In this document: in pieces, positions 384 to 11,110 of the stretch | How the letters are laid out: every line of letters starts with the position of its first letter | Position numbering within the stretch: the first letter of the stretch is position 1 | DNA from: Verrucomicrobiota bacterium | GTDB lineage: Bacteria > Verrucomicrobiota > Verrucomicrobiia > Limisphaerales > JBBRPK01 | Length of the DNA stretch: 64,000 nt | Reading direction: 5' to 3' | NCBI GenBank assembly: GCA_038228235.1 | Contig: JBBRPK010000008.1 | Coordinates: 3,027 to 67,026 of the forward strand | Notes under the pieces: generated by a model | What the model saw: the letters and a program-made list of their open reading frames with translations, nothing else | Database searches by the model: none | What the model was told of the DNA's origin: nothing | Position numbers and translations under genes: made by a program

Positions 384-1696
384 TCCGGCAGAGCCTTGTC
401 CTTAGTTTCGGGGGCGAACCAGATCAGGACCATTCCCAAAATATAAACGAGGGTGATCACGGCGCCTGCTTTGGCGAAGCTGCCGTTGTAAAAACTCATC
501 AGTTGGCCCTGGCCCAGCGCGCCGCCGGCGGCAAACAACCGCCCGGAATTGTAGCAGACCCCCTGCCCTGTTGCCCTGATGCGGGTAGGAAATAATTCCG
601 GCAGGTAAAGTGGAAGCCAGCCGTAAAAGGCCGCCGTCACGCTCCCAACCAAACCGACCAACACGAGAAACAAAACTCCGAAATGATCCACGGCGCGAAA
701 TAAAATCCCGCAGAACCCGAGGGACAACACGCAAAGTCCAAAATAAGTTGTCCTTCGCCCCAACCCCAATCCCACCCATGCTCCTAGCAAACAGCCCGCG
801 ACTGCGCCGAGGCCCGAGACAATTTGAGTAAGGGCCTTCGCGCGGGGCAAGGTCCCGCCGGTAAGTTGGTCGGCCCATGCTGGAAGCCATTGCACCGATC
901 CCCAAGTGCCAATAAGCGCCACCGAAGCGAAGGCGATCGCCAAAAGCGTATTCTTGAGCCATGCCGGACTGAAGATTTCTTTGAGCGGATGGACCATGCC
1001 GCGCTTGACGGCGGCTTTCCAGGGTTCCGATTCAGGAACAAAGAATTGGATGAAGAAAGCAAGCACGGCGGGGGCCGCGCCTGCCAACATGACCCAACGC
1101 CAGGAGCTTTGCGTGACCTTCCAATAAAGTCCCAGAACCGCGATCAAAGCGAAACCAACATTGGCAGCGGCCCCAATGATGCCAGCCAGGAGGGGCCGTT
1201 TGCTGCGAGGCCACGATTCCATCACCAGTGCCACGCCGAGTGACCATTCCCCGCCCATGCCAAAGGCCGCCACGAATCGAAGCGCCCCGAGCTGCCAGGG
1301 TTGCTTTACGAAATAGCACAGGCCGCTAAAGACCGAGTAAGTCAGAATGCTCAGCATCATGGCTCGAACCCTGCCGATGCGGTCGCCCAGCCAGCCAAAG
1401 GTCAATCCCCCGAAGGCAGCTCCGACTAGAAAAAGGGCCACTATCCTAGCCATCCAAAACCCGACAAATTGATCGGCAGCCATGCCAGTGTGGGCGGGCA
1501 TTAAATCAAGCAAGGCCGGACGCGCGACCAGCGGAAAAATCCCCATCTCCAACCCATCAAACATCCAGCCCAGGAAGGCAGCCACCAATACCATCCACTG
1601 CCCCTGGTTAATGCCAAGGCCCTTGGCTGCGAATACTTTCGCAGTTGCGGCTGGGTTCGAGGTTTGCTGAACAATATTCTGCGCCACCAGGCACAC
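380..1696 (-). CDS. MFS transporter (about 12 TM; sialate/sugar/organic-acid transporter-like)
   Basis: 438-aa ORF with FLGWMFDGLE, motif A GWLGDRIGRVRAM, GMGGEWSLG...ESWP and PELFPTRIRATGQG. Exact start uncertain. Confidence 0.9.
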   Translation of the reverse strand: MCLVAQNIVQQTSNPAATAKVFAAKGLGINQGQWMVLVAAFLGWMFDGLEMGIFPLVARPALLDLMPAHTGMAADQFVGFWMARIVALFLVGAAFGGLTFGWLGDRIGRVRAMMLSILTYSVFSGLCYFVKQPWQLGALRFVAAFGMGGEWSLGVALVMESWPRSKRPLLAGIIGAAANVGFALIAVLGLYWKVTQSSWRWVMLAGAAPAVLAFFIQFFVPESEPWKAAVKRGMVHPLKEIFSPAWLKNTLLAIAFASVALIGTWGSVQWLPAWADQLTGGTLPRAKALTQIVSGLGAVAGCLLGAWVGLGLGRRTTYFGLCVLSLGFCGILFRAVDHFGVLFLVLVGLVGSVTAAFYGWLPLYLPELFPTRIRATGQGVCYNSGRLFAAGGALGQGQLMSFYNGSFAKAGAVITLVYILGMVLIWFAPETKDKALPE

Positions 1697-1773
1697 CCTT
1701 GGGCATCCAAGGCTGGGTGGTCAAGGCTGTTGTTTTCAGCAATTCATTATGGCGGTGTCTCGGTATCACGCTA

Positions 1774-1839
1774 GGAAGGACGAGTTCCACGAGTCGCTAT
1801 TTGCCCAATAGATCAGAGACTCGTGGAACTCGTCCTTCC
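1774..1839. repeat. Perfect 22-bp inverted repeat (REP/REPIN-like hairpin)
   Basis: GGAAGGACGAGTTCCACGAGTC (1774-1795) and its exact reverse complement GACTCGTGGAACTCGTCCTTCC (1818-1839) around a 22-nt spacer. The repeat is certain; the REP label is inference. Confidence 0.8.
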
Positions 1840-2483
1840 GACCCAGCAGGGTTCGAATCACGGTGTTGTTTCCTGAACCAATCGATTGGGCGCGAGCGCG
1901 AGAGGACCGTGGTTTTTTTCGGAGTGCGCCCGTCCTCGGGCGCAGAGACGGCGAACCTGAGGAAGGTCGGCTGGAAAAACTCAACTTGTTTGGGTATGCA
2001 GCCGTTGCTGCAACGGAGGAAGAGGCGCACGTCGCCGCCCTTTTGAGCCTGCATCGAAGAAAAAAACGGGCCAGTGCCTGAGGCCCTCGCGCCGAAAGGG
2101 CGCTAACGGCTGGACAGCGTATCAGGTAGAGCGCAGGCCAACACCGCGGTAGCTATCTTAACCGGTAGTGCCGAACTGAGGCTGATCGTGTATTACCCGC
2201 ACATCACTTTCCACAACTTGGACATGCCGGCACTGGCCACGTAAATTCAAAGAGCATTCACTACGCTTCGTTCTGTGGAGAGTGATTATGCATAAATCTC
2301 AATGGGTGAATATCAGGGCTGATTCCCTCCCCCGGCTCAGTAAATCTACGATGAATCCTTACCGGGAAAGTACGGATGACCCCGGGGTCTCGTTGCAAGG
2401 GGAGAGCGGGCTAACGCTGCACCCACCTTCCCAAAAACAGTGGCAAGTGGACACTACGCCTGATCTTTCGAGTCGTTAGGGAA

Positions 2484-2499
2484 CGTGGAACTCGTTCTT
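2484..2499. repeat. Partial third copy of the REP-like unit
   Basis: CGTGGAACTCGTTCTT matches CGTGGAACTCGTCCTT of the 1818-1839 arm at 15/16 positions. Confidence 0.55.
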
Positions 2500-2588
2500 G
2501 CGACCAGAGGGCACGGCCACCCCAGAAGCCTGGGTTGACGGCTGCAAACAGATTTGTGAGGCTATGGCCATCATCAAGTATCTCGCGC

Positions 2589-3500
2589 ATGGAACTTAAA
2601 AAAGCTATCATTACCGCCGCCGGCCAAAGCCAAAGAACTCTCCCCTTGCAATCGTTGGTCGATCGCGATGGCGTCACGAAAACTGCGCTTGCCATCATTA
2701 TCGAAGAGATTCTGCAAGCCGGCCTGGAGGAAATTTGCGTGGTGGTTTGGCCCGGCGATCAAGCGGCATATGCCAGTGCGGCTGGCGCGCACGGCAACCG
2801 CCTGAGATTTGTCGAGCAGACCGCTCCCTTGGGTTATGGCCACGCGGTGTATTGCGCACGGCATTTCGCGGAAGGCCAGGCATTTTTGTTGCTGGTCGGC
2901 GATCACCTTTACGTGAGCGGCAGCCAAAAGCGGTGCGCCCAACAACTGGTGGAAATTGCCGCCGGCGAGAACTGCGCTGTCTCAGCCGTCCAGGCGACGC
3001 ATGAAAGCAAGCTTCCCTATTATGGAGCGATCGGAGGCCGATTGGTTCCGGGAAAGCAGCGGCTGTATGAGGTCCAAGACGTTTTGGAAAAGCCGACCCC
3101 CACCGAAGCCGAACAGAGACTCATTGTGCCCGGTTTGCGCGCCGGTCATTATCTCTGTTTCTTCGGCATGCATGTTCTCACGCCCACGTTAATGGACATT
3201 CTAGGGGAGGAAGTAGAACATCCTTCGCCCCTATCCAGCCAACCAGCAGGCATGTCGGGGCCTAAACCGCCGAAGGAGCTTGAAACGTTCCGGCAAAAGC
3301 ATGGAATTCATCTCACCACTGCCCTGGCGAAGTTGGCGGCGCGCGAGCGTTATCTCACGAGCGAGCTTCACGGCCGGCGTTACGATATTGGCGTGAAGTA
3401 CGGTCTGCTTACGGCCCAGCTTGCCCTCGCTCTCGATGGGAAGAATCGCGATGAGGTGCTGAGCCTCCTGGTCGAGTTGCTGGCTAACAAGGTGCGCTAA
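2589..3500 (+). CDS. galU: UTP--glucose-1-phosphate uridylyltransferase-like nucleotidyltransferase
   Basis: [16 protein letters not shown]..., [29 protein letters not shown]. Start taken at ATG 2589 (track ORF begins at 2535). Confidence 0.8.
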
Positions 3501-3634
3501 CAGCCTGCGTCCGTTTGGTGTTAACGCTTTAGCGTGTCTGAAGGAGCCTGACAGCCCGGAAGGCTGGATACCAACCGCGGACAACCTTGGCCAGCTCCAA
3601 CCGATTTAAAAAAGGAGCTAGTCCGATATCCCTA

Positions 3635-4981
3635 CTATGCCAGCTTCCAAGGATCGCGGTAGATGACGTCCAGCCAGGCCTTATCGCCCGTCCCGTCAAC
3701 GAACTGGAACTTCTTCGGGTCCCACTTCATCTTTTGCCCGTGATAATAGGCCAGGTTGACTAGATGACAAACGATGACGGTGTGGGCGCCCGTTTCAACG
3801 TCACAGATAGGCTTGCCGCGACTGCGAACGCACGAGAGCCAATCACCCTGATGATCGTTGCTTTTATAGAGACGCTTGGCATCGCCGGCGAGAAATTCCG
3901 TGGCGATCGCTTCGCATTGAGCCTGTGAATCGGCTTTCTGTTCAGAACCCAGCCAAAATTGAAACTTGCCCCGGTTGACGTTTATCTTCCCCTCGGTGCC
4001 ATAAAACCAGATCCCATCGCCCGCTTTGGGGTCGTGATCGGTGGGACTATGGAGGACCTCCGTGCCATTGGCGTAAGTGTAGCGCGCGCCATTTTTGGCA
4101 TCCGGTTTGTCGGCGGGGAAAATCTCCACCGGCCCACTCTCATCCATACCCAGGCCCCATTGAGCGATATCGAAATGATGGGCCCCCCAATCGGTGATCA
4201 TCCCGCCGCCGTATTCACGATAATTGCGCCAATTCGGAAAGTGTTTGTGGACCCCACGGGGGCTGAGCTCGGAATGGTAAGGCCGCAAAGGCGCGGGGCC
4301 GAGCCACATATTCCAATCCAACCCCGGCTCCTCTGCCTCGCCCGGCAAGTCGCAAGGCACTCCCGGCCCTCCCACAAAAACCTCGACTGATTTAACCTTG
4401 CCGATTCGGCCATTCCGAACCAGTTCGCAGGCTGTCCGAAATTCCTTGGAAGATCGTTGCATGCTGCCCGTCTGGAAGACCCGCTTGTTCTTGCGGACCG
4501 CGTCCACTAGCGCGCGGGCCTGGTGAATTGATTCCGTGAGAGGCTTCTCACAATAAATGTCTTTGCCGCCACGAGCGGCAGCGATGGCCACCAGGGCGTG
4601 CCAATGGTCCGGGGTCGCGATTACTACCGCATCGATGTCCTTGCGCTCCAAGAGTTCTCGAAAATCTTTGTAGGCTGCGCAGCCAGTGTAGGCGCCGGCA
4701 GGGTTTTGTTTAGCATAGAAACCTTCAACAATTTTCTGGGCATTCTCGCGCCGGGTCGTATCCACATCGCAAACCGCGACGGTCTGCGTTTCTTTTTTGT
4801 TGAGAAACCCACCCATCAGGCCACGCCCCTGCGTTCCGACACCGATAAAGCCCAGATTGAGGCGATCGCTTGGTTTAGTTTCGGCCGCCCAGATGTTCGA
4901 AGGAAGCAGGAATGGCGCGCCGACGCCGAGCACGACCGTCGATTTAAGAAACGTGCGGCGATTGGAAAGCTTTGTATTCAT
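3635..4981 (-). CDS. Tat-exported Gfo/Idh/MocA-family oxidoreductase
   Basis: SNRRTFLK twin-arginine leader, GFIGVGTQG Rossmann motif, IATPDHWH, CEKP, DWGAHHFD. Start taken at ATG 4981 (MNTKLSNRR). Confidence 0.92.
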   Translation of the reverse strand: MNTKLSNRRTFLKSTVVLGVGAPFLLPSNIWAAETKPSDRLNLGFIGVGTQGRGLMGGFLNKKETQTVAVCDVDTTRRENAQKIVEGFYAKQNPAGAYTGCAAYKDFRELLERKDIDAVVIATPDHWHALVAIAAARGGKDIYCEKPLTESIHQARALVDAVRKNKRVFQTGSMQRSSKEFRTACELVRNGRIGKVKSVEVFVGGPGVPCDLPGEAEEPGLDWNMWLGPAPLRPYHSELSPRGVHKHFPNWRNYREYGGGMITDWGAHHFDIAQWGLGMDESGPVEIFPADKPDAKNGARYTYANGTEVLHSPTDHDPKAGDGIWFYGTEGKINVNRGKFQFWLGSEQKADSQAQCEAIATEFLAGDAKRLYKSNDHQGDWLSCVRSRGKPICDVETGAHTVIVCHLVNLAYYHGQKMKWDPKKFQFVDGTGDKAWLDVIYRDPWKLA

Positions 4982-5119
4982 GGGGATAGTTATCCCCCTT
5001 TCCTTGAACCCGGCAAGCTCTAAGAAGCGCAAAAGTACGACCCCAGAAGAAAACACTGGACAGAGAGGTGCAGAGCGGCGGACAGCCCGGTTTATGGGAG
5101 ATTCTCATTCAGTCGCTTT

Positions 5120-5896
5120 CTACCCATAGCGCCCTTCAATGTACTCGGCGGTCTTGGGATTCCTGGGAGCGAGAAACAAATCTTCGGTCCGGCTGTGTTC
5201 CATGATTTCCCCCATCAGCATGAAGATGCATTCATCGCTGGCGCGGCGGGCCTGGGCCATATTATGGGTCACAATCACGATGGTATAGCGGCCCTTAAGT
5301 GTTAGCATCAGCTCTTCGATGGCCCGCGTCGCCTCCACGTCGAGGGCGGAGCACGGTTCATCCATCAGAATGACTTCAGGTTTAAGCGGGAGGAGCCGAG
5401 CGATGCAGAGCTTTTGCTGCTGCTCGAGTTGGAGGGTGGTGGCTTTTACATCGAGGCGATCCTTCAGATCGTTCCAGAGGCCCACTTCGCTCAACGCTCG
5501 CTCCACGATCTCGTCGGTGCGGGCTTTGTTCAACGCACTGCGCTCGTTGTGAATGCGCATGCCAAAGACGACATTCTCATAAACTGAGATCGGCAACGGG
5601 TTGGGCCGCTGGAACACCATTCCCACGGATTTCCGCAACTCGATCAGGGAGATGTCCGGTTCGTAAATGTTTTGGCCAAGGATTTTGATTTCGCCCGTAG
5701 TGGTGACATAGCCATAACGTTCGTTTACCCGGTTAAAGCAGCGCAGAAGGGTTGTCTTGCCGCAACCCGATGGACCAATCAAGGAAGTGATCAGGCCATG
5801 TTTCAAATTCACGCTCACGTTGATCAGGGCCTGGAATTCGGCGTACCAAAGGCAAACCTGCCGGGTGGTGATGCAATACTCGATGGGATCGCTCAT
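5120..5896 (-). CDS. pstB: Phosphate ABC transporter ATP-binding subunit (copy 1; degenerate ABC signature)
   Basis: Walker A GPSGCGKTT, Q-loop GMVFQRPNP, Walker B ILMDEPCSALD, H-loop IVTHN; the signature reads LQLEQQQK instead of LSGGQQQR. Last gene of the pst operon. Confidence 0.92.
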   Translation of the reverse strand: MSDPIEYCITTRQVCLWYAEFQALINVSVNLKHGLITSLIGPSGCGKTTLLRCFNRVNERYGYVTTTGEIKILGQNIYEPDISLIELRKSVGMVFQRPNPLPISVYENVVFGMRIHNERSALNKARTDEIVERALSEVGLWNDLKDRLDVKATTLQLEQQQKLCIARLLPLKPEVILMDEPCSALDVEATRAIEELMLTLKGRYTIVIVTHNMAQARRASDECIFMLMGEIMEHSRTEDLFLAPRNPKTAEYIEGRYG

Positions 5897-6738
5897 CCGA
5901 AGATTCCGTTTACGTAATCGTAGGTCCGCTTGTCCCTGGGCGTTTCGCTGAAGGCGACCTCCGTCGAGCTGAGTTCAACGATCTCACCGCGCCAGAGGAA
6001 AAGCGTCTGATCGGCCAGACGGCGGGCCTGCTGCACGAGGTTCGTGACCAGAATGATGGTCATGGTTTTGCGCAATTTTTTCAGCACATCTTCGATGCGC
6101 ATGGTGGTGACGGGGTCGATGGCGATGCTGAATTCATCGAGGCACAAAATCTCCGGGGAGAGAGAAAGCGCGCGGGCAAGGGTGAGGCGTTGCTGCTGGC
6201 CGCCGGAAAGGCGCGTGCCCAGCATGCCAAGCCGGTCTTTCACCTCATCCCAGAGAACTGCTTGTCGCAGGCAGCGTTCCACCGTTTCATCAAGCTCCGC
6301 CCTGGCAGTGGTGCCCATGCGGCGCGGAGCGTAAGCCACGTTCTCGTAAATGGTCAGCGGGAGACCCACTGGAAGCGGAAAGACCATACCGATGTGGCGG
6401 CGCAGTTCATTCGGGTTGCGAATATCAGCGACACTTTCGCCGTTGATCAACACGTCCCCCGTGAAACGCGCGCCTCCGACGAAATCGAGGGTCCGGTTAA
6501 TGGTCTTGAGCAGGGTAGTTTTGCCAGAGTTCGCTGGCCCAATCACGCCAAGCACGCTGTTGCGTTCGACGGTAAAGCTGATGTTGCGCAAGACCTGCTT
6601 GGAACCATAGAAAGCGGAGAGATTGCGAAATTCGATGTGTGGCTGAGATCCCAATCCAGCCTGGCGGCTGGCGACGGTCTGGCTCGGTTCTGCGCCCTTA
6701 ACTTGGCGGCTCAGAGATTCATCGGAGGGGGAGATCAT
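5893..6738 (-). CDS. pstB: Phosphate ABC transporter ATP-binding subunit (copy 2; degenerate Walker A, Q-loop and H-loop)
   Basis: GPANSGKTT, GMVFPLP, intact LSGGQQQRL, LCLDEF, LVTNLVQ. Start taken at ATG 6738; ATGA overlap with the next pstB. Confidence 0.9.
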   Translation of the reverse strand: MISPSDESLSRQVKGAEPSQTVASRQAGLGSQPHIEFRNLSAFYGSKQVLRNISFTVERNSVLGVIGPANSGKTTLLKTINRTLDFVGGARFTGDVLINGESVADIRNPNELRRHIGMVFPLPVGLPLTIYENVAYAPRRMGTTARAELDETVERCLRQAVLWDEVKDRLGMLGTRLSGGQQQRLTLARALSLSPEILCLDEFSIAIDPVTTMRIEDVLKKLRKTMTIILVTNLVQQARRLADQTLFLWRGEIVELSSTEVAFSETPRDKRTYDYVNGIFG

Positions 6739-6742
6739 GGGG

Positions 6743-7732
6743 TCACCAGCGTTTATGGCCTCGCAACCAGACCCGCAACGCGATGGCGAAGCTATTAACA
6801 AAGAGGATGAGCGCGATCAGAACAGCGGCGCTGCCATACTTCATCACATCGGGCATCTGAGAAATTTGGTTGCAGATGATGTTCAAATGCATCGACATCG
6901 CCATGAACGGTTCGCCAGGATTGTAAGGAAAAATTTTCTCCCATCCTTCATCGGCCACATATTTGAAAAAGGTGGCTCCGGTGAAAAGAATGGGCGCGGT
7001 TTCGCCGGCGGCGCGAGAGACGACGAGGATGACGCCTGTGAGAATGCCCCCGAGGGAATTCGGCAAAACGATGGTCCGAATGGTCTGCCAGCGCGTCGCG
7101 CCGAGGTTCCAGCAAGCCTCACGAAAGGCTTGGGGCACGCCCCCCAGCGCTTCACGGGCGCTGGTGATAATGACGGGCAAGTTCATGACCGCAATAGTGA
7201 GGGAGGCAGTCAAGAGGCCCGCCTGCCAGTTCGACTCTCGGACATTGGGATCGCCAATGACACGATTGATGGTGGGCAGCATCGTCAGGACAAACGCTCC
7301 CAACCCGAACAACCCGTGCACAATGCTGGGGACGCCAGCGAGGCTGGTGACCGCGATGCTTATGGTGCGGTTGAGCCAGCCTTCGCGCGCGTATTCGTTG
7401 AGGTAGATGGCGGCCAGAATCCCCACGGGCGCCACGAACAGGAGCGAGCCGATGACCAAATAAAACGTGCCCACGAGCGGCGCCCACAAACCGCCCTCCT
7501 TCCCTTTGTTCAAGGGATTGTCCCACAAATAATGGAGCGAAAAAACGGGCAACGCCTTGATGAAAATATCCAAGAGAATCGCCACCAGCGGGAGCACGAG
7601 AACAGCGCAGAAGCTGAACATGATCCATTTGTTGCGAATGGCGCGGCGCGACTTCCGGCGCTCGAATTCGCTCGGCGCAAAGGGATTTACTACCACGGAA
7701 GTGGAAGCGGGGAGTGCGAGTTCGGCATTCAT
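6743..7732 (-). CDS. pstA: Phosphate ABC transporter permease PstA
   Basis: AAIYLNEYA, LAGVPSIVHGLFGL, REALGGVP...EACWNLGATRWQTIR (EAA motif), RAAGETAPIL. Start taken at ATG 7732. Confidence 0.93.
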   Translation of the reverse strand: MNAELALPASTSVVVNPFAPSEFERRKSRRAIRNKWIMFSFCAVLVLPLVAILLDIFIKALPVFSLHYLWDNPLNKGKEGGLWAPLVGTFYLVIGSLLFVAPVGILAAIYLNEYAREGWLNRTISIAVTSLAGVPSIVHGLFGLGAFVLTMLPTINRVIGDPNVRESNWQAGLLTASLTIAVMNLPVIITSAREALGGVPQAFREACWNLGATRWQTIRTIVLPNSLGGILTGVILVVSRAAGETAPILFTGATFFKYVADEGWEKIFPYNPGEPFMAMSMHLNIICNQISQMPDVMKYGSAAVLIALILFVNSFAIALRVWLRGHKRW

Positions 7733-7751
7733 TCGAGACTCTGTCTTCCGG

Positions 7752-8771
7752 TCACACCTTGTTCGCTTTTTTGACTCCTTTGACGATGAGATCGGACGCA
7801 ACGTTGATGCTGCAGGTGATCACGAAAAGGACGATCCCGAGAATGAAGAGCACGCGATAATGGTCGCTGCCATGTACAGTTTCTCCCATCTCCGCCGCCA
7901 GCGTGGCCGTCATGGTGCGCACCGGATCCGTGAACACAGTCGGGATGCGGTTATTGCTTCCCGTTGCCAGGAGGACGGCCATCGTTTCACCCACTGCCCT
8001 TCCCATCCCAAGCATGCAAGCCGCCAGCAGGCCGTTGCGGGCGGCTGGAAAAAGCACGCGGGTCACTGTTTCCCAAGGATTCGCGCCCAGAGCGAGGGCC
8101 GCTTCCCGAAAAGAATCGGGCACCGCGCGTAGCGCGTCTTCGGAGAGCGAGACAATCACCGGAACGCTCATCAACGCAAGGATGATTCCGCCGGTGAGCA
8201 TATTTGTGCCCTGGGCCGCCCCCGTCGCGGAGCTGGCCAGATGCAAAGTGACCATGGCTTGTCCCCACCAACTGCCGGGTGTGGCGGTGAAGATGGATTT
8301 GACAATCGGTCCCAACACCATCAGGCCGATGAAGCCCCAGACGATGGAGGGGATAGCGGCGAGAAGTTCGATGACGACCTTAAGCGTCTCCTTCACCTTG
8401 CCGTGCGCGAACTCTGAGACGTAAATAGCAGCTCCAAGGCCGACGGGGACGGCAATGATAAGCGCGATAAAGGTAGTGGTGAAGGTGCCGATGATTAGGG
8501 CGAGCGCGCCAAAACTGGGCGGGTTTCCGGGCGCAGGGTTAGGAATCCACCGGGGGCTCCCGAAGAAATGGAGCCAGTCCAACCGTGGCATCATGGGAGC
8601 CCCTTCCTTGAAGATAAAAAGGAAGATGGCGATGATGGCGATGATACTGCTCCAGCCGCAAAGCCGAATCAACCACTCGATGGGTTTCTCGAGCAGGTCG
8701 AGAAGTTGAAACTTCTTTTTTGCTCCGGTGGAAGCAGCTTGTGCCATTGGTTCAGATGCTTTTGCCGGCAC
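7752..8771 (-). CDS. pstC: Phosphate ABC transporter permease PstC
   Basis: GLGAAIYVSE, IELLAAIPSIVWG, EDALRAVPDSFREAALALGA, GRAVGETMAV. Confidence 0.93.
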   Translation of the reverse strand: MPAKASEPMAQAASTGAKKKFQLLDLLEKPIEWLIRLCGWSSIIAIIAIFLFIFKEGAPMMPRLDWLHFFGSPRWIPNPAPGNPPSFGALALIIGTFTTTFIALIIAVPVGLGAAIYVSEFAHGKVKETLKVVIELLAAIPSIVWGFIGLMVLGPIVKSIFTATPGSWWGQAMVTLHLASSATGAAQGTNMLTGGIILALMSVPVIVSLSEDALRAVPDSFREAALALGANPWETVTRVLFPAARNGLLAACMLGMGRAVGETMAVLLATGSNNRIPTVFTDPVRTMTATLAAEMGETVHGSDHYRVLFILGIVLFVITCSINVASDLIVKGVKKANKV

Positions 8772-8790: not shown

Positions 8791-9681
8791 TCAATGCAGT
8801 GGAACAAAGCCTTCCTTTTCGACGATTTTTTGTCCCGCGGGCGAGAGAATCCACTCAATGTAAGCCTTTACTTCGCCGGTTGGCTCGCCGGCAGTGTAGA
8901 GGTAAAGCTTGCGCGCGATGGGGTATTTCCCATTGCGGGCCACGTCGATGCCTGGCTCGATGCCCGGTTCGCCTTTTTTGTTTGAGACCTTTAGCCAATT
9001 CACGCTCGGCGTTTTGTAGCCCATCCCGCTGTAACCCAAGCCAGTTGCGGTCTTCGCAACGTTCTCGACCACTTCTGAGGAACCGTTCATCTCGCTAATG
9101 CCACCGCGGAACTCGCGCTGCTTGCCATCCTTCTTGCCGCAGACGTGCTCACGGAAATAATCGTAAGTGCCCGAGTTGTTCTGACGGCCAAACAGCGCGA
9201 TCTTGCCATGCATGGCCGGATTGACTTGCTCCCAGTCTGTAATCGCGCCGCCCTCGGCCCAGATCTCGCGCAGTTCTCCGATTGAGATTTCCTTAGTCGG
9301 GTTGGAAGGGTTTGCATAGACGGCGAGCGCGTCGTAAGCGGTGGCGAACTCCTGGGCCTCTTTTCCTGTAATCTCCTTAACCTTGGCGCGCTCCTCGGCC
9401 TTAATGTCGCGCGAAGCATTGCAAATGTCCGTCTGATTATTCTGCAAAGCAGCAAAGCCGGTGCCGGAGCCGCCCCCGTTGACGTTCACACGGACGTTCG
9501 GTTTCACCTTCTGATAGGCCTCCGACCAGGCCTGAGCCAGTTGAACCATCGTGTCGGAGCCCTTGACCCGGATTTCGACGATTTTTTTTCGATCAGCCGC
9601 ACAAGCGCGCTGCCAGAGACCAGCGGATATGATAGCAACGACACAGACCGCCAAAACGGCTCTCATTCGTGAATTATTCAT
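8791..9681 (-). CDS. pstS: Phosphate ABC transporter substrate-binding protein PstS
   Basis: Signal peptide, then KGSDTM, NGGGSGTG, DICNASR, GRQNNSGTYDYF, YPIARKLY. Start taken at ATG 9681 (overlaps the phoU stop). Confidence 0.92.
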   Translation of the reverse strand: MNNSRMRAVLAVCVVAIISAGLWQRACAADRKKIVEIRVKGSDTMVQLAQAWSEAYQKVKPNVRVNVNGGGSGTGFAALQNNQTDICNASRDIKAEERAKVKEITGKEAQEFATAYDALAVYANPSNPTKEISIGELREIWAEGGAITDWEQVNPAMHGKIALFGRQNNSGTYDYFREHVCGKKDGKQREFRGGISEMNGSSEVVENVAKTATGLGYSGMGYKTPSVNWLKVSNKKGEPGIEPGIDVARNGKYPIARKLYLYTAGEPTGEVKAYIEWILSPAGQKIVEKEGFVPLH

Positions 9682-10792
9682 AAGTTTTCTTTTCGGCATT
9701 TTGTTCTCCCAGGATCGCCTGGGAGAGATCCCGGATATGGGTATTGATGTATTGGAACGTGGCTTCGTACGCCGCCCGAACTTCTTGAGGCGAACCCTCC
9801 ACGAAGGAGGGATCTTTCACATTCCAGTCGAGACCTACCGTCTTGGTTGGCGGGGGCGGGAAAACTCTTTGCGCCTCGTGCGCCAGGGCCACAACCACCT
9901 GGTAATGATCGAGGTTCGGGATCTGGCTGACGGACTTTGATTTGTGATGCGAAATATCAATCCCCCGATCGGCCAGAAACTCCGCAGTCAGAGGATCGAT
10001 GGGATGAGGGTCTATGCCAGCGCTGCTGAATACGAATTCCGGCCGTCCCAGCGAGTTCGCAATCCCTTCTGCCATCTGGCTCCGGCAGGCGTTCCGAATA
10101 TCGACAAAGAGGACCCGCAGCACCTCGGTGCCTTTATGTTTGGCATACTCGCCGGTGCACATGTAAAGCACCTCTTCACAAATGTTTTTCGCCTGGTCCG
10201 AAACCCGTTCGAAGCGCCGGGCAATGGTCAGCAGAGGGGTGAGGGCTTCCAAGGGAATTTTGCCGAGCTGATATTGCTGCATCAAAGCGGCATTGATGCC
10301 ATTGCGCAGGAGATCAACTTCTTCTTCGATGGCCATGGTGCTCCGGGCCAACTCCGGCTTTTGATCGACGAATGCCTGCACGGCTTGCTGGAGCATCGGA
10401 ATGGAGAGGTTGGCAATGGCGGCGAATTTTTCGTACGAAGGCTGGGGTTCCAGAGAACTAATCTTCAAGACCTGCCGGGCGATGCTTTCAGCATAATCGC
10501 CGATTCGTTCCAACTCTAAATTAATCTTGATCGTGGCATAGACAAACCTCAAATGCCCGCCGGCTGGCTGCTGGCGCACCAAAAATTCCAGGCAAAGCCG
10601 ATCCAACTCCTTTTCCAACTCATCGATATACTGATCTCGCAAAATGATCGAGTAAGCCAACTGCCGGTTTCGCTCTACCAGCGCCTGCAGACTGCTTTTG
10701 AGAGCGCGTTCCGCCAGTCCCGCCATCTCCAGGACCTTTTTGCGGATGAGCTTTACATCGCGTTGCAGGGATTCTTCAAAATGCGACAACAT
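9674..10792 (-). CDS. phoU: PhoU fused to a C-terminal ArsC/LMW-PTP-like domain
   Basis: N-terminal ~220 aa are PhoU (DQYIDELE, LERIGDYAESIA, FERVSDQAKNICE); C-terminal ~150 aa read VLFVDIRNACRSQMAEG...SAGIDP...SKS...WNVKDP. Confidence 0.92.
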   Translation of the reverse strand: MLSHFEESLQRDVKLIRKKVLEMAGLAERALKSSLQALVERNRQLAYSIILRDQYIDELEKELDRLCLEFLVRQQPAGGHLRFVYATIKINLELERIGDYAESIARQVLKISSLEPQPSYEKFAAIANLSIPMLQQAVQAFVDQKPELARSTMAIEEEVDLLRNGINAALMQQYQLGKIPLEALTPLLTIARRFERVSDQAKNICEEVLYMCTGEYAKHKGTEVLRVLFVDIRNACRSQMAEGIANSLGRPEFVFSSAGIDPHPIDPLTAEFLADRGIDISHHKSKSVSQIPNLDHYQVVVALAHEAQRVFPPPPTKTVGLDWNVKDPSFVEGSPQEVRAAYEATFQYINTHIRDLSQAILGEQNAEKKTYE

Positions 10793-10819: not shown

Positions 10820-10847
10820 TGTTACGAATAGGTGTCGACTCTGTTAC
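10820..10847 (-). promoter_or_regulatory. Possible Pho-box-like direct repeat upstream of phoU-pst
   Basis: Minus strand GTAACA-N5-GACACC-N5-GTAACA (11-bp register, outer copies identical), 28-55 bp upstream of the phoU start. Middle copy is poor. Confidence 0.3.
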
Positions 10848-11110
10848 TTCCAGGTGAAGAACCCCGGAATTGCGCTGGACAGGCGAATTGCAAGACCCAC
10901 AAGATCGACGCATGGTATGGGTCGAGTCGGAAGCGGAATAAATTCCGCGCTCCCGAGCCGAGGCGGTTTATGGCTTCCAAAAGATTCAAAGAAATGGAGC
11001 AATTCTCATTAGGCATCACATCGGCCTCGTTTTTCTTTGTCCCTCTACTCCAGGGCCCACCCCAGTTCTCATCTTGAGGTCGCTTCCCGATACTGCCATT
11101 CTCCGAAGGA

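Follow-up and report, generated by a model that had tools for sequence, protein, structure and literature searches.

A 64,000-nt stretch of DNA from a Verrucomicrobiota bacterium (Limisphaerales; JBBRPK01; assembly GCA_038228235.1, contig JBBRPK010000008.1, positions 3,027-67,026), hereafter the window, to whose coordinates the positions below refer, carries on its reverse strand a gene in which PhoU is joined to a C-terminal domain of the arsenate reductase (ArsC)/low-molecular-weight (LMW) phosphatase fold. We refer to this gene as phoU-L. It heads a phosphate transport (pst) operon with two unequal ATPase genes, and its parts are the following:

9674-10792, reverse strand: phoU-L, PhoU fused to an ArsC-fold pseudo-enzyme domain (uninterrupted open reading frame, 372 aa)
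10148-10792, reverse strand: PhoU part, residues 1-215, two three-helix repeats (TIGR02135, Foldseek)
9677-10129, reverse strand: ArsC/LMW phosphatase-fold domain, residues 222-372, predicted to be catalytically dead (LMWPc, PDB sequence match, Foldseek)
10079-10102, reverse strand: degenerate P-loop D231-I-R-N-A-C-R237-S238 in place of the canonical C-X5-R-S (direct DNA reading)
9863-9889, reverse strand: sites of the lost redox pair, from A302 (equivalent of Cys82) to V310 (equivalent of Cys89) (alignment)
9809-9826, reverse strand: retained acid (DP) loop W323-N-V-K-D327-P328 (translation, alignment)

An initial annotation of this DNA had described the gene as PhoU joined to an ArsC/LMW protein tyrosine phosphatase (PTP) domain, and the 372-aa frame, Pfam, NCBIfam and AlphaFold2/Foldseek all bore this out. 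Pfam assigned PhoU (PF01895) to two stretches of the protein (126 bits) and LMWPc (PF01451) to residues 227-356 (48.4 bits, cut-off 23.2), and the NCBIfam model phoU_full (TIGR02135) matched residues 9-215 with 166.7 bits, above its cut-off of 130.25. In contrast, the ArsC models of NCBIfam gave the C-terminal part just 60-76 bits against cut-offs of 158-174; the model for thioredoxin-type ArsC (TIGR02691) reached 73.4-75.9 bits and stayed below its cut-off of 174.3. The ArsC-fold domain also matched the PDB sequence 2L17 (E 5.8e-15). An AlphaFold2 model built from an 87-sequence alignment (mean predicted local distance difference test score 94.8, predicted template-modelling (TM) score 0.75) showed residues 4-213 as a helical PhoU part and residues 225-371 as a four-stranded alpha/beta domain, for which Foldseek returned A. 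aeolicus PhoU 1T72 (TM 0.96) and B. subtilis ArsC 1JL3 (TM 0.89, root-mean-square deviation 1.9 Å over 135 columns), respectively. Each PhoU repeat carries an E-R-x-x-D motif (E95..D99; R196..D199), with E95, R96, D99 and R196 invariant and D199 near-invariant in 87 fusions. A fusion created by misassembly, the caveat raised in the initial annotation, or by a frameshift was ruled out by the continuous frame, by the same architecture recurring in hundreds of independent assemblies and by a model that is confident across the linker.

Catalytic positions were mapped by alignment to the ArsC chains 2L17 and 8P5N, the genome's own canonical ArsC and Cys-type fusions, which placed D231 on Cys10, A302 on Cys82 and V310 on Cys89 and matched D327-P328 to the acid loop. 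Read directly from the DNA (10102 to 10079), the P-loop is GAT ATT CGG AAC GCC TGC CGG AGC, encoding D231, I, R, N234, A, C236, R237 and S238. This agrees with the replacement of the catalytic cysteine by aspartate in D-I-R-N-A-C-R that had been noted at 10081-10102, an interval right to within one base. The distal redox cysteine pair is absent, as had also been noted, with A302 and V310 at the aligned sites of YQVVVALAHEAQRVFPP (residues 297-313), and the persistence of the anion-binding Asn, Arg and Ser together with the acid Asp in WNVKDP (residues 323-328) was confirmed for the window's protein and its clade. phoU-L is a member of PhoU; it belongs neither to ArsC nor to the LMW phosphatases, whose defining cysteines were checked for and are lacking. 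At the level of sequence, the loss of all three catalytic cysteines rules out that the domain acts as a thiol-based arsenate reductase or as a Cys-based phosphatase.

A survey of PhoU-LMWPc fusions for the residue at the nucleophile position, which the initial annotation had proposed as a check, found Asp in 114 of 117 close homologues. In a species-level comparison of 81 sequences, the window included, this position held Asp in 74, Gly in 4, Ser in 3 and Cys in none. Because of this prevalence of Asp in both sets and the complete lack of Cys at species level, the comparative evidence indicates that the Cys-to-Asp substitution is neither a chance nor a sequencing event. The close homologues also retain N234 (116 of 117), C236 (106), R237 (97), S238 (114) and D327 (116), the last as an intact D327-P328 in 116 sequences. 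At species level, R237 is kept as Arg in 51 of the 81 sequences. On a tree of the 81 species built without the P-loop and DP-loop columns, the minimum number of state changes was at least 14 for the Arg, 3 for the nucleophile Asp and 6 for the acid Asp. Further out, 94 distant cluster representatives showed D (74), E (5), S (5), C (4) or G (3) at the nucleophile position, that is, an acidic residue in 79 of 94, while the Arg position held Arg in just 15, with Leu the commonest residue (39), and the acid Asp of the DP loop was present in 26. Because of these frequencies, the alignments indicate that, of all active-site features in the family, the acidic side chain is conserved best, and that the anion-clamping Arg is expendable.

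The near-invariant positions across all fusions are fold-core residues (L228, F229, A241, A258, G259, L303, W323 and L356), and mean pairwise identity is 0.49 in the ArsC-like domain compared with 0.58 in the PhoU part. Read from this pattern of conservation, the whole domain is constrained, consistent with purifying selection. It could still be argued that it is a functionless remnant carried along by its fusion to an essential regulator, given the decay of its catalytic residues and a P-loop that is very variable across the family. We consider this highly improbable in view of the near-invariant core, an identity close to that of the PhoU part, the rarity of truncated forms and the retention of the full length in 304 species from several phyla.

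The distribution of the fusion was followed at several depths. Both PF01895 and PF01451 were present in 120 of the 120 best homologues (65-90% identical), and about 100 fusions, all full-length and with identities reaching as low as about 30%, came from an exhaustive search of 50%-identity cluster representatives. Relatives of phoU-L residues 200-372 are encoded in 304 stretches, from several phyla, of a species-level genome collection; this collection was searched with a single protein, and distant members are under-sampled in that survey. Labels of the best 80 of the 304 were mostly Limisphaerales/Pedosphaera, with some Zhuqueibacterota/KSB1, Fibrobacterota, Calditrichaceae and Acidobacteriota; Limisphaera sp. 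4302-co is among the carriers. Carriers with Bifidobacterium, Akkermansia muciniphila or Cytophagia in their titles (L028, L031, L036, L039, L058 and others) are probably mislabelled or mis-binned contigs. A sample of 150 genomes from the window's own order contained 46 with the fusion, compared with only about 5 of 300 in an even sample of the phylum, where a single broken copy was seen. The fusion system has a wide distribution among uncultured Verrucomicrobiota, Fibrobacterota, Zhuqueibacterota/KSB1, Calditrichota and Acidobacteriota of soil and fresh water.

Downstream of phoU-L lie the genes of a phosphate importer, and upstream of it a repeat array:

10820-10858, reverse strand: Pho-box-like array with an 11-bp period, TTCACC, GTAACA, GACACC and GTAACA at -66, -55, -44 and -33 from the ATG
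8791-9699, reverse strand: pstS (PBP_like_2), its start overlapping the end of phoU-L (ATG 9699 or ATG 9681, within ATGAATAA)
7752-8771, reverse strand: pstC permease (open reading frame, conserved gene order)
6743-7801, reverse strand: pstA permease (open reading frame, conserved gene order)
5893-6801, reverse strand: pstB1, degenerate ATPase subunit, true start probably ATG 6738 (motifs)
5120-5896, reverse strand: pstB2, competent ATPase subunit in which the LSGGQ signature is changed to LQLEQ (motifs)

The order phoU-L, pstS, pstC, pstA, pstB1, pstB2 is kept in 80 of 80 related loci, within the reach of their flanks, and phoB and phoR follow the phoU-L operon in about 10 of the 80. The two ATPases of the window are complementary in their defects. 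PstB1 has an altered Walker A (GPANSGKT), Pro for the Gln of the Q-loop and Asn for the His of the H-loop, and its LSGGQ signature is intact; in PstB2, the Walker A, Q, Walker B and H motifs are canonical and the signature reads LQLEQ. This reciprocal degeneracy was found in 60 of the 60 sequences compared, with a PstB1 Walker A of the form GPA[QN]SGK[TS]. In ATP-binding cassette (ABC) proteins, each ATP site is formed by the Walker, Q and H motifs of one subunit and the signature of its partner. Because of this pairing, a PstB1-PstB2 dimer would hold one consensus and one degenerate ATP site.

A PstB1-type gene is present in every one of the 46 genomes of the order sample that carry the fusion, and one locus of that sample is cut by a contig end. 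Pairwise distances over 53 operons provided a second, quantitative comparison: those of the ArsC-like domain correlated with PstB2 at r 0.58 (Mantel p < 0.0005) and with PstB1 at 0.29, PstS at 0.23, PstC at 0.10 and PstA at 0.12, with a bootstrap difference of 0.29 (0.15-0.39) between the PstB2 and PstB1 correlations. Distances of the PhoU part tracked PstB2 at r 0.65, and those of PstB1, PstS, PstC and PstA correlated with one another at 0.74-0.91. This mirror-tree lead, weak and indirect, would link the ArsC-like domain to the motor and predicts a contact with PstB2. A docking run with PstB1, PstB2 and domain residues 218-372, each with its own alignment, scored 0.00 where the mark was 0.32, and speaks neither for nor against binding. 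In two loci (L078, L090; about 660-5290 of those loci), a classical pstS-pstC-pstA-pstB-phoU operon stands directly upstream of the phoU-L operon, so that both transporter types occur in tandem.

The array upstream of phoU-L has the layout TTCACC-N5-GTAACA-N5-GACACC-N5-GTAACA. GT[ACT]AC cores with 11- or 22-bp spacing at -75 to -35 occurred in 29 of 66 related promoters, compared with 0.3 in shuffles. In the 6.36-Mb genome, the pattern GTMACA-N16-GTMACA gave four matches and a reversed-pattern control none. The four correspond to three places, namely the phoU-L promoter, the region upstream of an operon of PhoU_div and PHO4 (PiT), where a four-box array yields two overlapping matches (C267:3252-3290, L109), and the region upstream of a Porin_5 porin (C16:47361-47388, L108); all four thus lie next to genes related to phosphate. 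By its spacing and its company the array would look like a Pho box, making the phoU-L operon a putative member of the Pho regulon. The genome has a second, stand-alone PhoU directly upstream of phoB and phoR and beside a malate-dehydrogenase-like gene (L001, C81:5055-8312); Pho-box-like repeats were looked for upstream of this stand-alone phoU on C81 and none were found.

Taken together, these data lead us to favour, with a probability of roughly 50%, a reading in which the ArsC-like domain serves, without catalysis, as a module of a PhoU dedicated to the transporter and helps PhoU to act on the PstB1-PstB2 motor. phoU-L would then be a PhoU devoted to the transporter and heading a Pho-regulon operon for a phosphate ABC importer with an asymmetric motor, in which PstB2 would supply the working Walker A, Q, Walker B and H motifs and PstB1 the only intact signature. 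Its N-terminal part is a normal PhoU, and its C-terminal part would descend from a thioredoxin-type arsenate reductase. We infer that the carboxylate of D231 sits in the ring of backbone amides of the P-loop and satisfies the anion hole from within. With its anion hole occupied in this way, the fold would be stable without a ligand, which would explain both the repeated loss of the Arg and the conservation of the acid; the residues found at the nucleophile site (D, then E, S, G and N) are ones able to cap backbone amides or to satisfy them. As a docking or allosteric module, the domain may assist PhoU in braking import via PstB1-PstB2 when cytoplasmic phosphate is sufficient, and the stand-alone PhoU beside phoB-phoR may handle signalling to the kinase, in a putative division of labour between the two PhoU proteins.

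Several points weigh against this reading. Contact of the domain with PstB1, PstB2 or PhoR, and with it docking on the ATPase, is putative, and the position of the D231 side chain is taken from the known P-loop geometry of the fold. Two genomes of the order, G348 (L105) and G418 (L106), carry pstS-pstC-pstA-pstB1-pstB2 without an adjacent phoU-L; the asymmetric motor therefore has no strict need for phoU-L. Mirror-tree correlations can also stem from shared rate or composition effects. Finally, the window's clade retains the whole pocket (N234, R237, S238, S257, H296, D327 and P328), which would look like a working ligand site.

This retained pocket is the starting point for the alternative that, in lineages that, like the window's, keep the Arg, Asn, Ser and DP aspartate, the former active site has become a receptor without catalysis, which binds cytoplasmic phosphate or arsenate or else a phosphorylated ligand and whose occupancy is relayed via PhoU to the transporter or to PhoR. 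We regard this as unlikely, if worth serious consideration. N234, R237, S238 and D327 are conserved throughout most of the window's clade, the model of the fold and P-loop is highly confident, and a sensor on a PhoU that sits on the phosphate importer would be sensibly placed. Moreover, D327 is kept in 50 of the 51 Arg-keeping species-level sequences and lost in 9 of the 30 Arg-less ones, which suggests that the pocket is retained or given up as a whole; however, these are raw counts uncorrected for kinship, and an independent-pairs test of the co-loss on the tree found only 6 supported pairs, too few for power. The Arg itself argues against a receptor, as its state changed at least 14 times among the 81 species, it is lost even in the 79%-identical P0027, and it is missing from 79 of the 94 distant representatives. 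In addition, the residue under selection is an acid, which should repel an oxyanion and puts a negative charge where the anion would have to sit. The initial annotation had proposed a non-catalytic phosphate or arsenate sensor, and of this the non-catalytic part stands, in that Cys-enzyme activity is impossible, while general sensing of oxyanions by the P-loop is unsupported in a family with the Arg in 51 of 81 and 15 of 94 sequences. Narrower still, and in our estimate somewhat more doubtful, is the proposal that in Arg-keeping lineages the ex-ArsC pocket is a working phosphate (or arsenate-versus-phosphate) receptor tethered via PhoU to the one-active-site PstB1-PstB2 motor. If true, this pocket would be the direct internal phosphate-sensing element long missing from models of Pst, PhoU and PhoR.

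Alternatively, the domain may still be an enzyme or a phospho-acceptor with Asp231 in place of the Cys, either as a slow phosphatase or as an acyl-phosphate site helped by R237 and D327; its substrate might be a phosphorylated partner (PhoR, PhoB) or a small phospho-metabolite. The strong selection for an acidic residue at the nucleophile site would fit, as would the Arg, the Ser/Asn network and the general-acid Asp retained in the window's clade, and the C215D mutant of PTP1B, characterised by Romsicki et al. in 2003 (J Biol Chem 278:29009), reportedly keeps low activity. Against this, most family members lack the required Arg and acid Asp, no metal-binding motif of the haloacid dehalogenase (HAD) or receiver type stands beside the Asp, and variable, bulky residues (H, R, N) take the place of the canonical Gly of the P-loop, so that we hold an Asp231-based enzyme to be very unlikely. 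HAD-like or receiver-like chemistry in particular, considered because the Asp lies where strand 1 ends, is kept only as a low-probability rival for want of a conserved DxDxT or acidic-pair motif. Both the Asp-based enzyme and the functionless remnant are less likely than the sensor in the Arg-keeping clade.

The origin of the non-catalytic module that we favour may be visible among its relatives. Three rare fusions (P0156, P0237 and P0248, the last on a contig of only 1.9 kb) keep Cys10, Cys82, Cys89, the Arg and the DP motif, and in the two whose gene context was read (P0156, labelled Deltaproteobacteria bacterium by NCBI, and P0237) the gene stands last in a classical pst operon, after a single pstB. 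The intact-triad loci, in their own coordinates and not those of the window, are these:

7001-8116 (L101/L102): intact-triad fusion
2977-4077 (L110): intact-triad fusion

By their residues and setting, these proteins resemble working arsenate reductases attached to PhoU at the importer and represent a plausible ancestral state. A further member, P0158, has retained the Cys without the Arg and stands first in a two-ATPase operon, and a distant, strongly degenerate member sits between pstS and pstC in a two-ATPase operon. We would order the events as follows: an active arsenate reductase may have been tethered to PhoU at an importer that admits arsenate, its chemistry may then have been lost, and the domain may have been retained for another role in a lineage that also evolved the asymmetric motor. 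Such an origin, suggested by the relatives with an intact ArsC triad, would have stationed an arsenate reductase at the entry point of arsenate.

Comparison with known systems places phoU-L close to several and identical to none. Like canonical PhoU (E. coli; 1T72 of A. aeolicus, 4Q25 of P. aeruginosa, 2I0M of S. pneumoniae), it has a full PhoU in residues 1-215 (TM 0.94-0.96) and belongs to a pst operon, but it adds a 150-residue C-terminal ArsC-fold domain, stands first in the operon rather than last, is paired with two unequal PstB proteins, and shares its genome with a second, plain PhoU beside phoB-phoR. The domain resembles thioredoxin-coupled ArsC (S. aureus pI258 1LJL, B. subtilis 1JL3, Synechocystis 2L17, D. 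indicus 8P5N) in fold (TM 0.83-0.89), in sequence (E 6e-15 to 1e-12) and in keeping the P-loop Asn, Arg and Ser, the SAG motif and the DP loop; it differs in the changes Cys10 to Asp, Cys82 to Ala and Cys89 to Val and in its fusion to PhoU. The intact-triad fusions share the two-domain architecture and the pst operon setting, but unlike phoU-L they keep the triad, the Arg and the DP motif and, in P0156 and P0237, come last, after a single pstB.

For the ATPase pair, the nearest parallel in gene arrangement is the tandem pstB1/pstB2 of Enterococcus faecalis, likewise an adjacent pair in one pst operon with non-equivalent roles (PMC12096839). Equivalence with such Firmicutes tandems was ruled out because all motifs are retained in both of those copies (PMC12096839). 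In its reciprocal degeneracy, the PstB pair is akin to heterodimeric ABC exporters with one degenerate site such as TM287/288 (PMC5216877; review PMC7756269). For the ArsC-like domain, there are parallels in the D1 pseudophosphatase of PTPRU (PMC7320164) and in PRL/PTP4A, where a phosphatase fold binds and regulates the CNNM magnesium transport mediators (PMC12192612), both cases of a Cys-phosphatase fold in a non-catalytic role. Unlike the phoU-L domain, these eukaryotic proteins belong to other fold subfamilies and are not fused to their partners.

In the searchable literature, which leaves most subscription journals outside, we found no paper on a PhoU-LMWPc/ArsC fusion or on a reciprocally degenerate PstB pair; the PhoU-ArsC fusion is real and widespread, and apparently undescribed. 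How phosphate is sensed through Pst and PhoU is a long-standing question, and we know of no ligand-sensing element identified in this system. The phoU-L operon departs from the textbook arrangement in a conserved ex-enzyme domain on PhoU, in what would be one live and one dead ATPase site, and in a regulator gene at the head of a Pho-box-like operon. It amounts to a natural experiment, with a domain that can be deleted or mutated and with separable PhoU paralogues and PstB subunits. Even with docking as its only role, the domain would, as far as our search went, be the first pseudo-phosphatase-fold domain of bacteria to be described in the regulation of a transporter.

Elsewhere, the genome holds three canonical C-X5-R proteins, namely one full ArsC and two LMW phosphatases. 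A 724-aa open frame includes a canonical LMW phosphatase domain (CTGNICRS; L005, C75:12455-12877), which may therefore be fused to something else.

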